From a virus (lineage: Duplodnaviria; Caudoviricetes), in the IMG/VR virus record IMGVR_UViG_3300044703_000023, positions 207-64,206 of that record: DNA of 64,000 nucleotides, one strand, 5' to 3'. The notes beneath the pieces were generated by a model. That model had not been told where the DNA came from, made no database searches, and saw only the letters and a program-made list of their open reading frames with translations. This document shows positions 21,390-55,663 of the stretch, piece by piece; positions within the stretch are counted from its first letter, which is position 1, and every line of letters begins with the position of its first letter. A program made the position numbers and the translations under genes.

Positions 21390-21626
21390 GTGACTCCAGA
21401 AGAATTAAAGCAGTGGCGAGATAAGCACGGGTGGGGGCAGCAGGAACTTGCCGAACGACTGGGCGTTCACCTTCAAACTGTTTCCAAGTGGGAACGTGAT
21501 GTCCAGGCGATTCCCCCTTACTTGGAACTAGCCCTCAAGACAGTCGAGCGTGAGAGCGGTACAGCGAAGTACACGCCTGAAATTGAACAGAAGATTAAGG
21601 CGAACCTCAAGCCTCGTAACCCCTAA
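21390..21626 (+). CDS. XRE-family HTH regulator
   Basis: MTPEELKQWR..HGWGQQELAERLGVHLQTVSKWER. Confidence 0.9.
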   Translation: MTPEELKQWRDKHGWGQQELAERLGVHLQTVSKWERDVQAIPPYLELALKTVERESGTAKYTPEIEQKIKANLKPRNP

Positions 21627-38539: not shown

Positions 38540-38589
38540 TGGGGCGGCATGTGGGGCTCGAACCCACGACCTCCTGAACCACAATCAGG
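38540..38589 (-). other. attP core: 3' half of tRNA-His(GTG)
   Basis: CCTGA-TTGTGGT-TCAGG anticodon arm, GTGGG-TTCGAGC-CCCAC T arm, ATGCCGC-C-CCA; no D arm or 5' acceptor strand; about 155 bp upstream of the integrase. Confidence 0.9.
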
Positions 38590-38744
38590 GTTAGCATTAC
38601 AACCAGCCACAACCACACAAAGCCCTCCGCAACTAAAAACATCCGAATACCTTGATTATAGGCTCTTTGTGGCGTACCGTCATCAACTATTTCCAGTCCG
38701 CGACCACTCGAAACAGCAAACGAATTGGCGCACAAAGTGTAGAC

Positions 38745-39926
38745 ATGCCCCGCGAGCGTAAACTTCAAATCGTTGAGAAGCGCGGAAAGATTTATGCCCG
38801 CACTACCTATGTTGGCCTTGATGGGAAGCGTCACGCCATCTGGCGGGCAGGAAAGAACAAGACCGCCGCAAAGGATAATCTCCGCGAGGCGCTCCGCGAT
38901 CTGGAGAGAGAAGGCGACGGCGCCATGATTAACGCCAAGCGAACCTTTGGCGATTTGGCCGCATGGTATTCCAAGCGTTACTTGATTCCGCCGGAGTATC
39001 GCGATGGTCGCGTGGTTAAAGGAAAGCGATCCTGGCAGAACGAAACCTATCAACTGAAAGCAATCGTCGCCTACTTTGGCGGCTACAAATTGCGATCTAT
39101 TAGTCACGGTGAATTGGAGAAGTACAAGGAACACCGCCTTGCTACTCCTATCGTTTTCGAGCGTAAAGACCCGAAGGCCAAAGGCGGAAAGACTGTCACT
39201 CACCGGAACAGAACGATCACCACCGTCAACCGCGAGCTTATGGCGATCCGCGTGATGCTCAGAAAGGCACAGAAGGAGGGTTGGCTGCTCCGCATTCCCT
39301 TTGAGGAGCACGATCCGCTGATTAACGTGTCTGACGAACGGCGAAGAGACAGAACGCTGTCCTACGAAGAGGAGGCGCGATTGCTGGCTAGTGTAAGAGA
39401 CTTTGTGCGCCCGATTCTCGTGTGCGCCTTGGCGACAGGTATGAGACTGGGAGAAATTCTTAAGCTCGCGTGGCCGGATGTCGATCTGGATAATAGATTG
39501 ATTCGTATTCGCTCGACTAATACCAAAACCCAGGATGAACGCTACGCTCCGATCACCGCCCCGCTGCTCGCGGAGTTGAAGTCGCTTAAGGCTACGGCGC
39601 TGCCGGATGCTGAAAGAGTCTTTGGAATCAAGTCGAACATTAAAAGAAGTTTCCGCAGTGCGTGTGAACGCGCCGGAATCAAACATGGCGGCGTAGACGG
39701 TCTGACGTTTCACTCCCTGCGCCACACGGCGGCAACGAGAATGATTAAACAAGGGATGGACATTACCGCTGTGGCGAAAATTCTTGGTCATCGTCAGGTA
39801 TCTACAACCTATCGGTACGTTTCGGCGGATTCAGACATTCTTGATCGGGCAAGGGAAGCATTGTCATTTAGGCCGCAATCTTCTTCTCAAACCGCCGATG
39901 AAAAGACTCCACATGATCCGGACTGA
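38745..39926 (+). CDS. int: Tyrosine integrase
   Basis: TGMRLGE, TKT, FHSLRHT, LGH...TTYRY catalytic residues. Confidence 0.97.
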   Translation: MPRERKLQIVEKRGKIYARTTYVGLDGKRHAIWRAGKNKTAAKDNLREALRDLEREGDGAMINAKRTFGDLAAWYSKRYLIPPEYRDGRVVKGKRSWQNETYQLKAIVAYFGGYKLRSISHGELEKYKEHRLATPIVFERKDPKAKGGKTVTHRNRTITTVNRELMAIRVMLRKAQKEGWLLRIPFEEHDPLINVSDERRRDRTLSYEEEARLLASVRDFVRPILVCALATGMRLGEILKLAWPDVDLDNRLIRIRSTNTKTQDERYAPITAPLLAELKSLKATALPDAERVFGIKSNIKRSFRSACERAGIKHGGVDGLTFHSLRHTAATRMIKQGMDITAVAKILGHRQVSTTYRYVSADSDILDRAREALSFRPQSSSQTADEKTPHDPD

Positions 39927-53642: not shown

Positions 53643-53976
53643 ATAATTCCGGGGCTGCGTAGAGGCGCGATCTGTGCAGAAAGAACCTTTTCCGCAGCCC
53701 GTTCTCAGGCTTCACCCGAGCCTGAAACTCAAATCTGTCTACCTTCTGTCGCATGGGCGATTCGCCTCACTGTCCGGTCTAACCAAAAGCACTTAAAGAA
53801 CTTTGACGGAAGCATGAAACCCTTCGGGGATAGCCTTAACAAAAACTTAACTTGCAATCACTTTTGGAAGTTGTAGGGTGGGAATATCACTTAGGCCCAC
53901 CGCTTTTTTGGGTCTTTTAGGGGCGTATGCGGTGTCAGCCGTATGCGCCTCAGTTTTTCTCAGGCTGCGTACTCAA

Positions 53977-54159
53977 TCACGTTGTGGGTTTCCTTAGCGC
54001 CGCCTGAACTTGCGGAGCGTTCTCAATGAGCATTCGGACGAAGCCAGACTTAGACCGATTGTCCTTGTCACTGGCGACTTCCACGGCGCGGGCAACGTGC
54101 GGCGGGACCAGCGCGCCGACCATTTCTAATTCGGGTTTCTTTTTCTTTTTAGTAGCCAC
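53977..54159 (-). CDS. Cro-analogue, ribbon-helix-helix protein
   Basis: EMVGALVPPHVARAVEVASDKDNRSKSGFVRMLIE; first gene of the leftward early operon. Confidence 0.75.
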   Translation of the reverse strand: MATKKKKKPELEMVGALVPPHVARAVEVASDKDNRSKSGFVRMLIENAPQVQAALRKPTT

Positions 54160-54166
54160 GAACGAC

Positions 54167-54210
54167 CTTATACCTTAAAGGTTCTTAAAAAGCAACAAGA
54201 TTCTTAAATA
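54167..54210 (-). promoter_or_regulatory. Leftward early promoter with operator
   Basis: TTGCTT-tttaagaacctttaagg(17)-TATAAG, then 7 nt to GTG 54159; second site AAGATTCTTAAA near 54197. Confidence 0.75.
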
Positions 54211-54258
54211 ATATAAATCTATCTTCCAAACCCTCAGAAATGTTAATGAAGTGGAAAT

Positions 54259-54546
54259 ATGCCTAAGGAAAAACGTAACAAGATGATCGGCGCTCTTGTG
54301 CCCCCGTCGATCAAGAAAGAAGTTGAGGCGATTTGCGTAAACGAGGATCGCTCTATCAGTACGGTAGGCTACATGCTGCTAATGAGGGCGTTGGAGCTTT
54401 ATCGACTGGATGGCTCGCTGAGAAACAACGAAAGCCTTCTGTCTATCGTTGCAGGGCTAGCTGAAGACCTTTACTCAACCCCGGAACAGAAGAAACCCGA
54501 TGCCGCCGCAAAGCAGTCAAAAGTCAAACTGAGACGTACCGCGTGA
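54259..54546 (+). CDS. Putative immunity repressor, ribbon-helix-helix
   Basis: KMIGALVPPSIKKEVEAICVNEDRSISTVGYMLL; paralogous to and divergent from 53977-54159. Confidence 0.75.
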   Translation: MPKEKRNKMIGALVPPSIKKEVEAICVNEDRSISTVGYMLLMRALELYRLDGSLRNNESLLSIVAGLAEDLYSTPEQKKPDAAAKQSKVKLRRTA

Positions 54547-54977
54547 AACTTGCTCGTCCCTGCCATTGGTGCGACGCGGGAACCGCCCTTGACGCGGGTC
54601 GGTTATGCGCTCCCTGTCGTAACGCGGCAAGCGGTCTTGGGCGGCTCTCACTAAACGAACTGGACGCCTTGCCTTACGGCGTTATGTCGGTTGATCTTCA
54701 GGGCAACATCTTGGCCGTTAATCGCCCTGAGCAGGAGTTCGCCAAAATAACCCTTGCGCAGTCGCTCGGTAGGAATTTCTTCACTGAGATCGCGCCCTGT
54801 GCCCAGGTACGCGGATTCAAGAGTCGATTCGAGGCCTTTATCAAAAGCGGTCGGGCCGTGCATGGCTTCCGCTTTACCTACCGTTTCCCTAACGGCCCTA
54901 TTGTCGTGGTAATAGAACTCGTTAGAGCGTCCGAAAAGACCGTTATTATTGCCAGGCGTATTCCTGCCAGCCGCTAA
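54543..54977 (+). CDS. pyp: Photoactive yellow protein (PYP)-like PAS protein with N-terminal Cys4 motif
   Basis: Gap-free match to Halorhodospira PYP residues 15-79 (recalled): LDALPYG..VD..GNIL..N..E...GRNFFTEIAPC; Glu46 and Cys69 equivalents kept. Confidence 0.9.
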   Translation: MKLARPCHWCDAGTALDAGRLCAPCRNAASGLGRLSLNELDALPYGVMSVDLQGNILAVNRPEQEFAKITLAQSLGRNFFTEIAPCAQVRGFKSRFEAFIKSGRAVHGFRFTYRFPNGPIVVVIELVRASEKTVIIARRIPASR

Positions 54978-55042
54978 CCACTCACCGAACCCCTGACAGT
55001 TAGTAAAAACTCCTAACAAAACTGGCACAAGCCTGGACGGCG

Positions 55043-55101
55043 AAAGAATCTTTAAGAAGTTTGCGAATTAAGTTGACACCTTTAAGGTTCTTTAATATAC
55101 T
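55043..55101 (+). promoter_or_regulatory. Rightward early promoter with operators
   Basis: TTGACA-cctttaaggttctttaa(17)-TATACT, then 7 nt to GTG 55109; extra site AAAGAATCTTTAAG at 55043. Confidence 0.85.
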
Positions 55102-55108
55102 GCTGCGC

Positions 55109-55663
55109 GTGGACACCAAGGCTACAGACAATTACCGACCTTCCCGCTCCGAAAGAATAGCCATGCGGAACTTCGTGCTTCGCCACTTGCTACTGCTCTC
55201 GGATTTGGAGATTGCGGTTTTGGTTATTCGGTACACCGCACTGGGCAACCGCTTTTTACCGAGCTGGAAGCAGATAGCGCCGTTGGTTAACGAGGACTGG
55301 CAGACGGTGAAGAACGTCCACGATATGACATTGCTGCTATTGGCGCGGCGAACCGAAGAAAAGTATCTACCTCATACCATGTGGGACTTACAGGCAGACG
55401 TTGAAAAGGTCAAAGAGGACGCACGGCGCAAGAGTGCCGGTGCAATGCAGTCGGGACGGCTGGTGAAGCAACCCTGTCAAAACTGCGGCGCGGGCGCTGA
55501 ATTCTCAGAAGGCCATCACCGTAATTATTTCAAGGCGCTCGCGGTTACGTGGCTATGCCATCCCTGCCATCTGGCGGAACACGCAGAGAACCATCAGATA
55601 AACGGCGCGATGCTAATCCCGACGAGCGAGATTTTAGAGAACCATGAACGGCTCGGACTGTAG
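55109..55663 (+). CDS. HTH-like + HNH-like zinc-finger protein
   Basis: LSDLEIAVLVIRY...SWKQIA (sigma region 4-like); CQNC...EGHHRNY...WLCHPCH. Confidence 0.65.
   Translation: MDTKATDNYRPSRSERIAMRNFVLRHLLLLSDLEIAVLVIRYTALGNRFLPSWKQIAPLVNEDWQTVKNVHDMTLLLLARRTEEKYLPHTMWDLQADVEKVKEDARRKSAGAMQSGRLVKQPCQNCGAGAEFSEGHHRNYFKALAVTWLCHPCHLAEHAENHQINGAMLIPTSEILENHERLGL

Follow-up and report, generated by a model that had tools for sequence, protein, structure and literature searches.

The stretch of DNA analysed here, hereafter the window, spans 64,000 nucleotides (positions 207 to 64,206 of the IMG/VR record IMGVR_UViG_3300044703_000023, a virus of the Caudoviricetes) and covers nearly all of a 64,206-bp record that has direct terminal repeats and is rated 100% complete. 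Directly behind the gene of a ribbon-helix-helix (RHH)-like putative repressor, RHH95, it carries a gene for a zinc-ribbon-bearing relative of photoactive yellow protein (PYP), designated Zn-PYP. The genes, residues and control elements at this locus are arranged as follows.

53977..54159, minus strand: 60-aa RHH-like protein, first gene of the leftward unit, in a Cro/Mnt-like position (open reading frame (ORF) list, BLASTP)
54160..54258: divergent control region with operator-like copies and candidate promoters
54172-54189: 18-bp operator-like copy including the 11-bp palindrome ACCTTAAAGGT (repeat family D1, inverted pair I12)
54185-54212, plus strand: candidate rightward promoter, 9/12 in the promoter scan
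54191-54208: degenerate operator-like copy of the repeat family
54195-54190 (-35) and 54172-54167 (-10), minus strand: candidate leftward promoter TTGCTT-17-TATAAG, read by eye, 8/12, below the scan threshold
54259..54546, plus strand: RHH95, 95-aa RHH-like putative repressor without a peptidase domain (phrog_3431 Arc-like repressor, E 0.0011, residues 14-50)
54543..54977, plus strand: Zn-PYP gene, 144 aa, GTG start
54561-54617, plus strand: zinc-ribbon cysteines C7, C10, C22 and C25 (two CxxC pairs)
54633-54929, plus strand: PYP-like PAS core, residues 31-129
54729-54731, plus strand: E63 (Glu46 equivalent), codon gag
54798-54800, plus strand: C86 (chromophore Cys69 equivalent), codon tgt, within NFFTEIAPC
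55044-55055, plus strand: operator-like half-site (repeat families D1, D2)
55073-55101, plus strand: rightward promoter TTGACA-17-TATACT, 11/12 in the promoter scan
55078-55095, plus strand: 18-bp operator-like copy in the spacer of that promoter (repeat families D1, D2)

The Zn-PYP protein and the predicted switch around it

An earlier note, made from the DNA letters alone, had proposed a PYP-like photoreceptor gene at 54543-54977, and the searches bear this out. The 144-aa protein is matched by NCBIfam TIGR02373 photo_yellow (E 1.2e-18, 67.4 bits) and by Pfam PAS PF00989 (E 3.5e-8), and a PDB sequence search at E<=1 returned 36 distinct sequences, of which the 33 top-ranked belong to PYP, to the Ppr PYP domain or to tags derived from PYP, headed by the Ppr PYP domain 1mzu (E 2e-14). 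An AlphaFold2 (AF2) model of Zn-PYP, computed from a 108-row alignment, has a predicted local distance difference test score (pLDDT) of 87.8 and a predicted template-modelling score of 0.81. With this model, the ~36 rows listed to rank 39 of the Foldseek search of PDB are all PYP, Ppr-PYP or PYP-derived tags (top rows with target template-modelling scores of 0.76-0.85 and root mean square deviations of 2.1-2.9 Å; best rows ~2.2 Å over 116 columns), and generic PAS domains enter only at rank 40. A chance PAS resemblance was rejected because PYP structures outrank every other PAS domain in Foldseek. A fold search of BFVD with the same model returned just generic viral PAS proteins at identities of 18% or less.

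The gapless alignment to PYP, which the earlier note had drawn over the whole ORF, holds for residues 31-129, which run against residues 14-112 of H. halophila PYP at an offset of +17, whereas residues 1-30 form a CxxC...CxxC zinc-ribbon-like extension without counterpart in PYP; zinc-ribbon families are called by Pfam in several relatives. The proposed equivalences of C86 with the chromophore Cys69 and of E63 with Glu46 are confirmed by both codons. Tyr42 is replaced by Val59, and the positions of Thr50 and Arg52 hold Ala and Ile. Across 30 aligned Zn-PYPs, E63 and C86 are invariant, the four zinc cysteines are present in at least 90%, and the residue at the Tyr42 position is Tyr (19), Phe (7), Val (3) or Leu (1). 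According to the main text of the family survey by Xing et al. 2022 (PMC9664959), the PYP family is defined by Cys69, and Tyr42 and Glu46 are never both lost; the window protein keeps the latter (E63) and has lost the former (Val59). By sequence and model, the 144-aa protein is a true PYP-branch PAS protein, from a subfamily in which a four-cysteine zinc ribbon appears to replace the N-terminal cap. A full HMMER search of 1.84 billion representatives recovered 747 relatives at E<=1e-3, 212 of them at E<=1e-10, and many relatives share the zinc ribbon. In one 1174-aa metagenome protein, P0006, the C-terminal half contains a tandem array of four canonical PYP domains, all of which have Tyr42, Glu46 and Cys69.

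The GTG of the Zn-PYP gene (54543-54545) overlaps the TGA of the RHH95 gene (54544-54546) by 4 nt as GTGA, just as the earlier note had read it. This layout supports co-transcription of Zn-PYP with the RHH-like regulator gene, and the two are probably also translationally coupled. The RHH identity that had been proposed for the 95-aa protein draws on the weak Arc-like PHROG match; no Pfam or NCBIfam family matches RHH95 and a PDB profile search gave 0 hits. RHH95 is paralogous to the divergent 60-aa protein (BLASTP, 38% identity over 39 aa, E 1e-7), which has no Pfam, NCBIfam or PHROG family match. The AF2 monomer model of RHH95 is poor (pLDDT 64). Its one homologue, P0156, is 62% identical, and P0156 and the PYP fragment P0001, which is 77% identical to the window PYP, each lie on a 2,348-bp contig. 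The claim that RHH95 lacks an S24 domain was upheld and extended: neither an S24 nor an M78 peptidase domain was found anywhere in the phage, so that no classical induction sensor is visible.

The motif AAGGTTCTTWAA, with one mismatch or fewer, has five matches in the window against 0.46 expected, a number reached by 0/100 shuffles, and three of the five lie within the switch region. The candidate leftward promoter (54195-54167) also holds a predicted operator in its spacer. That the gene pair sits between two outward promoters, as first proposed, stands on the rightward side, where the scan called the promoter at 11/12, and is less firm on the leftward side, where it was read by eye at 8/12. 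Collectively, these features support a placement of the RHH95-Zn-PYP pair between predicted operator-bearing promoter regions of a temperate phage. A complex prediction for two RHH95 chains and one Zn-PYP scored 0.00 against a mark of 0.32, which is neutral either way.

The slot in other phages and the fused forms

Pattern scans of IMG/VR identified five further records with a true Zn-PYP (L002/L004, L140, L141, L142 and L143), 14 other matching stretches being chance, and a sixth further locus, L085, came from a 283-kb metagenome contig; with the window, this makes seven phage or prophage loci. In 7/7, the Zn-PYP gene lies directly 3' of one or more co-oriented regulator genes, with a small gene for a divergent regulator on their other side and, in L085, L142 and L143, a ParB-like gene beyond that. 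The PYP start lies -4, -4, -4, -11, -20, +9 and +25 nt from the upstream stop, and all 21 pairs of phage PYPs are homologous (29-59% identity, E<=3e-25). The regulators themselves differ in kind. S24 repressors with RHH-like or helix-turn-helix (HTH) N-termini precede the PYP in L085, L140, L141 and L142 (Pfam S24 E 7e-21 to 1.9e-12); in L002 (6957-8441), an XRE repressor is followed by an M78 ImmA-like peptidase and then by Zn-PYP; in L143, the upstream gene encodes a 237-aa protein without family assignment; and RHH95 of the window has no match to the regulators of the other six loci. The slot, a regulator followed by Zn-PYP, is kept while the regulator type changes. A regulator-PYP synteny akin to the RHH-pyp order that the earlier note had advised looking for in phages is found in six further loci, though their regulators show no match to RHH95.

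Integrases are present in 3/6 of the IMG/VR Zn-PYP records, one of which is classed as a provirus. L002 is a 68-kb phage with terminal repeats, and no tyrosine or serine recombinase was found in its record. In 50,697 GenBank phage records, tblastn gave no match to Zn-PYP. A hidden Markov model built from the four S24 repressors matches just those four among 128 loci, trivially so for such a narrow model. The notion of PYP as a general S24 replacement was rejected, since the two co-occur in L085, L140, L141 and L142. The pattern scans also returned a near-identical ~100-nt stretch in ten unrelated-looking IMG/VR viral contigs, several of them giant-virus-sized (L145, L147-L154 and L156); it matched the degenerate PYP motif by chance, with a stop codon in the matched frame, and is probably a shared repeat or mobile element.

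In a further set of 13 metagenome protein clusters (metagenome origin looked up for 10), an N-terminal extension precedes the zinc ribbon and the PYP domain in one chain. Most of the 13 extensions appear RHH-like by eye; Pfam, run on 30 members, called one HTH_3 (4.4e-9) and one RHH_5 (0.0011). The N-terminus of P0022 matches the DNA-binding end of the L085 RHH-S24 repressor (44% identity over 99 aa, E 1e-21), and P0023 matches the N-terminus of the L140 S24 repressor (38% identity over 60 aa, E 7e-9); P0049 matches the L142 repressor at E 0.023 only. Because the N-termini of P0022 and P0023 are homologous to those of S24 repressors, PYP in these two proteins is predicted to occupy the place of the S24 sensor and dimerisation domain of phage repressors. 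In IMG/VR, 24 pattern matches to fused forms were obtained, none of them confirmed.

A tree was built from 46 chosen rows (8 phage-located, 13 fused, 12 stand-alone, 6 chromosomal and 7 outgroups) rather than from all 150 listed matches. All 13 fusions form one clade (95/89), joined by six phage PYPs and a pair of stand-alone proteins of unknown context in a wider clade (80/82), and the window PYP groups with P0001 and P0010 (98/95). New here are the six further loci with Zn-PYP behind regulators and the 13 clusters in which a DNA-binding-like region is, as judged from the proteins' sequences, fused to Zn-PYP.

The carrier phage

Beyond the switch, the following features of the phage bear on its lifestyle and layout.

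~21405-21515, plus strand: second small XRE-type HTH regulator (PF01381, E 2e-11), far from the RHH switch
38541..38590, minus strand: attP core, the 3' half of a tRNA-His(GTG) gene (Rfam tRNA match 38545-38608, minus strand, 22.1 bits, E 0.077, below gathering)
38652..39926, plus strand: tyrosine integrase (PF00589, E 1.6e-32 in the record, E 2.7e-30 for the ORF)
53920-53961, plus strand: strong terminator-like hairpin of 14 pairs with a plus-strand T-run, just past the 3' end of the leftward 60-aa gene
55061-55663, plus strand: HNH-type endonuclease-like protein, first gene past the strong rightward promoter (phrog_2340, E 1.8e-13)

The phage is taken to be temperate because it has an integrase gene with the tRNA-His 3' half beside it; ARAGORN found no whole tRNA at the attP core (38541..38590). 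Leftward genes start at ~54159 and include an SbcC-like ATPase, a helicase and a primase-like gene, and rightward genes, from 54259, include the HNH-type endonuclease and a C5 methyltransferase. The hairpin at 53920-53961 has no U-tract on the minus strand. The XRE regulator near 21.4 kb may mark a secondary immunity region, and because of it the RHH pair, judged from gene content and layout, is the best candidate for the master switch though not the sole one.

The 50-nt attP core was matched, with 2 mismatches, in just 1/401 Acidobacteriota genomes, and the idea of an acidobacterial host would draw only on the nearest chromosomal Zn-PYPs. The DNA of the window was matched in sequencing runs of two studies, labelled soil metagenome; one of these studies is possibly its source, and no RNA run was among the runs found to carry it. 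A 57,986-nt contig contains the whole of the compared stretch without any difference and may be the source. A second contig is identical to the window only at 53900-53977, 54107-54336 and 55127-55200 and does not reach the PYP ORF. No close kin of the phage turned up in IMG/VR when the 161-aa HNH-like protein and the 456-aa SbcC-like protein were used as probes.

What the Zn-PYP may do, and known systems

A functional tie between Zn-PYP and the repressor is the best single reading of the locus, because the slot recurs behind unrelated regulator types and because in-frame fusions join proteins of the same subfamily to repressor DNA-binding domains. In this reading, the lysogen would produce Zn-PYP and the RHH-like repressor from one transcript, and Zn-PYP would serve as the repressor's signal-sensing partner. 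Cys86 would carry a thioester-linked p-coumarate-type chromophore, derived from the host or from plant p-coumarate in soil, and blue or near-UV light, or another change in chromophore state, would alter the occupancy of the 18-bp operators by the repressor at the leftward and rightward promoters. A signal that weakens repression would be the more natural direction, by analogy with the fusions that have PYP in place of S24. That Zn-PYP acts on or with the repressor in some way comes close to an even chance; that light is the signal moving the switch is doubtful. We assign a probability of about 0.25 to the reading as a whole, namely that a temperate soil phage lineage uses a PYP photoreceptor as the sensor module of its lysogeny repressor, split in the window or fused in place of S24, so that blue or near-UV light without DNA damage shifts the switch. 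The observation itself is real, rare and of interest; chromophore binding, light response, repressor contact and the direction of the effect are what we infer from it.

Several results weigh against this reading. On the side of the protein, the score of 67.4 bits is less than half of the curated equivalog cut-off of TIGR02373 (143.05), where the six other phage Zn-PYPs score 77-96 bits; the model covers only ~20% of PYP homologues, as stated in the main text of Xing et al. 2022 (PMC9664959). Val at the Tyr42 position is found in 3/30 aligned Zn-PYPs and 3/135 motif instances, and the window copy has Ala at the Thr50 position where the other six have Ser, its pocket being the least canonical of the seven phage copies. 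On the side of the switch, the RHH assignment of RHH95 draws on a PHROG match of E 0.0011, and lysogeny may be maintained either by the RHH pair or by the XRE HTH protein. No relation of RHH95 to the PYP-fused repressors could be detected, and the tree puts the window PYP in a distinct clade with P0001 and P0010, without resolving how that clade joins the main one of repressor-associated PYPs. The suggestion that PYP stands in for the missing S24 failed as a general rule, as four loci have an S24 domain and one an ImmA protease, all with PYP. PYP is also rare: among IMG/VR loci with an S24 repressor of the same kind, it is present in 1/75. Genes behind prophage repressors are often cargo, and the position of cI-rexAB in lambda, to which the earlier note had likened the pair, is matched in that PYP lies behind the repressor, a comparison that fits a cargo gene equally well. 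In Geothrix and in a Blastocatellia metagenome-assembled genome (MAG), chromosomal Zn-PYP adjoins housekeeping genes (malic enzyme; purE), and such stand-alone copies indicate that Zn-PYP works without a phage repressor.

Chromophore supply adds to these difficulties. No aromatic ammonia-lyase (PF00221) or AMP-ligase (PF00501) was found in the window phage or in the L002 record. The PYP-type 4-coumarate-CoA ligase (pCL; TIGR02372) exceeds its cut-off in 0/5 Zn-PYP bacterial genomes (best 60 versus 334.7 bits), the ligase matches there being generic acyl-CoA ligase tails as in control genomes, and each of the five has one lyase, which is the HutH equivalog in 4/4 scored. Activation of exogenous p-coumarate by a generic ligase is a possible route of supply. 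For comparison, genes for tyrosine ammonia-lyase (TAL) and pCL adjoin 10% and 30% of PYP genes, respectively, as given in the main text of Xing et al. 2022 (PMC9664959).

The strongest rival is that Zn-PYP is cargo of the immunity operon, a lysogenic-conversion or exclusion-type accessory behind the repressor that leaves the switch untouched; it would endow the lysogen with a photoresponse of the host's kind or disturb the Zn-PYP signalling of the host itself. The same subfamily occurs stand-alone on the chromosomes of four Geothrix species and in Holophagaceae, Blastocatellia and Gemmatimonadota MAGs, and because of these copies a host pathway for Zn-PYP probably exists. In cultured Geothrix, the gene lies next to the malic enzyme gene (L013 8001-8411; also L007, L008 and L010), and neither a PYP-type coumarate-CoA ligase nor any lyase other than a HutH-type one accompanies it in these genomes; Geothrix offers a tractable system for asking what the Zn-ribbon PYP subfamily binds. 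Cargo would also suit the rarity of the gene (6 IMG/VR records by the patterns used, 0/50,697 GenBank phage records, 1/75 S24-repressor loci) and its place, in the other loci, as the last conserved gene of the repressor operon, before variable small membrane or secreted proteins or a convergent gene; exclusion genes co-transcribed with a repressor are documented, for example, in phage Fc02 (from part of PMC9936078). However, a cargo gene would not be expected to be fused in frame to repressor DNA-binding domains, as in the 13 clusters, two of which are built on phage-repressor N-termini, nor to keep its slot while the regulator type changes, and the start-stop overlaps in 5/7 loci suggest stoichiometric co-production. 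We regard cargo as a serious, if on balance unlikely, explanation.

A coupled sensor that responds to something other than light is less probable still: here Zn-PYP, by way of the conserved Cys and Glu, would report to the repressor on redox state, on a small molecule or simply on whether p-coumaroyl-CoA is available, the last as a sign of plant phenolics in soil. Light is limited in soil and plant phenolics are common there. The matching DNA comes from runs labelled soil metagenome, TAL and PYP-type pCL were not found in either phage or in 5/5 bacteria as described above, and the window copy has Val at position 42 and Ala at position 50; redox sensing has been proposed for some PYP variants, according to the main text of Xing et al. 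2022 (PMC9664959). Yet Glu46 and Cys69 together mark the p-coumarate photocycle and do not vary among the 30 aligned sequences, and generic acyl-CoA ligases in all five genomes could activate exogenous p-coumarate. Moreover, positions 42 and 50 are Phe and Ser in all phage copies but that of the window, and photoactive PYP tolerates Y42F, its hydrogen bond being provided by Thr50 instead (same survey, main text, PMC9664959). Finally, a decaying or functionless captured host gene, to which the atypical pocket, the score under the family cut-off and the rarity might point, is very improbable given an intact frame, a 77%-identical relative (P0001) on another contig, key residues conserved across seven loci at merely 29-59% identity and a confidently predicted fold.

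Were the coupling of Zn-PYP to the repressor borne out with light as its input, this would be the first photoreceptor-gated phage switch and would, also for the first time, link PYP directly to DNA binding as an output; no signalling partner of PYP has been known since the protein was discovered. Known inputs for non-SOS induction are chemical, quorum signals and arbitrium among them. Induction by light or by plant phenolics would add a cue of a new class, with consequences for the influence of sunlight on lysogeny in soils and in habitats at the surface. Photoactivity of the fused RHH-Zn-PYP proteins, should it exist, would make them natural optogenetic repressors of compact size. Even as cargo, the gene would be the first of the PYP family to be reported from phage genomes within the literature searched, and phages would be moving photosensory genes between soil bacteria. 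The arrangement, which the earlier note had thought undescribed, has no description in that literature, and among the papers listed there we found none on a phage-encoded PYP, on photoreceptor-controlled lysogeny or on prophage induction by a blue-light photoreceptor. Two family surveys, Xing et al. 2022 (PMC9664959) and Dohmen et al. 2025 (PMC12826048), do without the words phage, virus, zinc, ribbon and helix-turn-helix in their main texts, and that of the latter also without repressor, LexA and DNA-binding, and by this word search neither main text describes a PYP with a DNA-binding output. The main text of Xing et al. reports that clade A PYP genes are often adjacent to transcriptional regulators and that the downstream partners of PYP are still largely unknown (PMC9664959); a PYP apparently wired to DNA-binding repressors offers a concrete candidate partner.

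Compared with H. halophila PYP and the Ppr PYP domain (1mzu), the window protein shares the PAS fold, the GxNFFxxxAPC motif, the chromophore Cys and the proton-donor Glu, whereas it has a predicted zinc ribbon for the N-terminal cap, Val, Ala and Ile at positions 42, 50 and 52 and a sub-cut-off TIGR02373 score; its gene is phage-borne and lies behind a repressor, with no TAL or pCL gene found nearby. The gene order itself has precedents in phages and mobile elements. In lambda cI-rexA-rexB, rexAB lies behind cI; P22 immI (mnt / arc-ant) has divergent RHH regulators; and in ImmR-ImmA of ICEBs1 and phi105, a partner that is activated after translation is encoded with the repressor. The likeness lies in the co-transcribed gene behind a repressor, in the divergent RHH pair and in the order XRE-ImmA-PYP of L002; to our knowledge, none of the partners in those systems is of PAS or photoreceptor type.

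Another system for comparison is VqmA_Phage, a PAS and HTH quorum-sensing receptor that triggers lysis; it binds a diffusible autoinducer and activates an antirepressor gene. Encoded by vibriophage VP882, it is a PAS sensor that brings an environmental signal to the lysis-lysogeny decision (sections of PMC8284805 and PMC12802170). In contrast to VqmA_Phage, the PAS domain of the window is of PYP type with a covalent-chromophore signature and is encoded inside the repressor operon, some of its relatives being fused to a DNA-binding domain. Among bacterial photoreceptors, EL222 (LOV-HTH), BluF/BluR (YcgF/YcgE), AppA/PpsR and CarH each have a photosensor, which either shares a chain with the DNA-binding domain or serves a separate repressor as its partner or antirepressor. 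Their classes are LOV, BLUF and B12, and we know of none that is a PYP or is phage-borne. By analogy, the same fused or split logic may be seen in Zn-PYP, with one chain in the 13 fusion clusters and two overlapping genes in the window.

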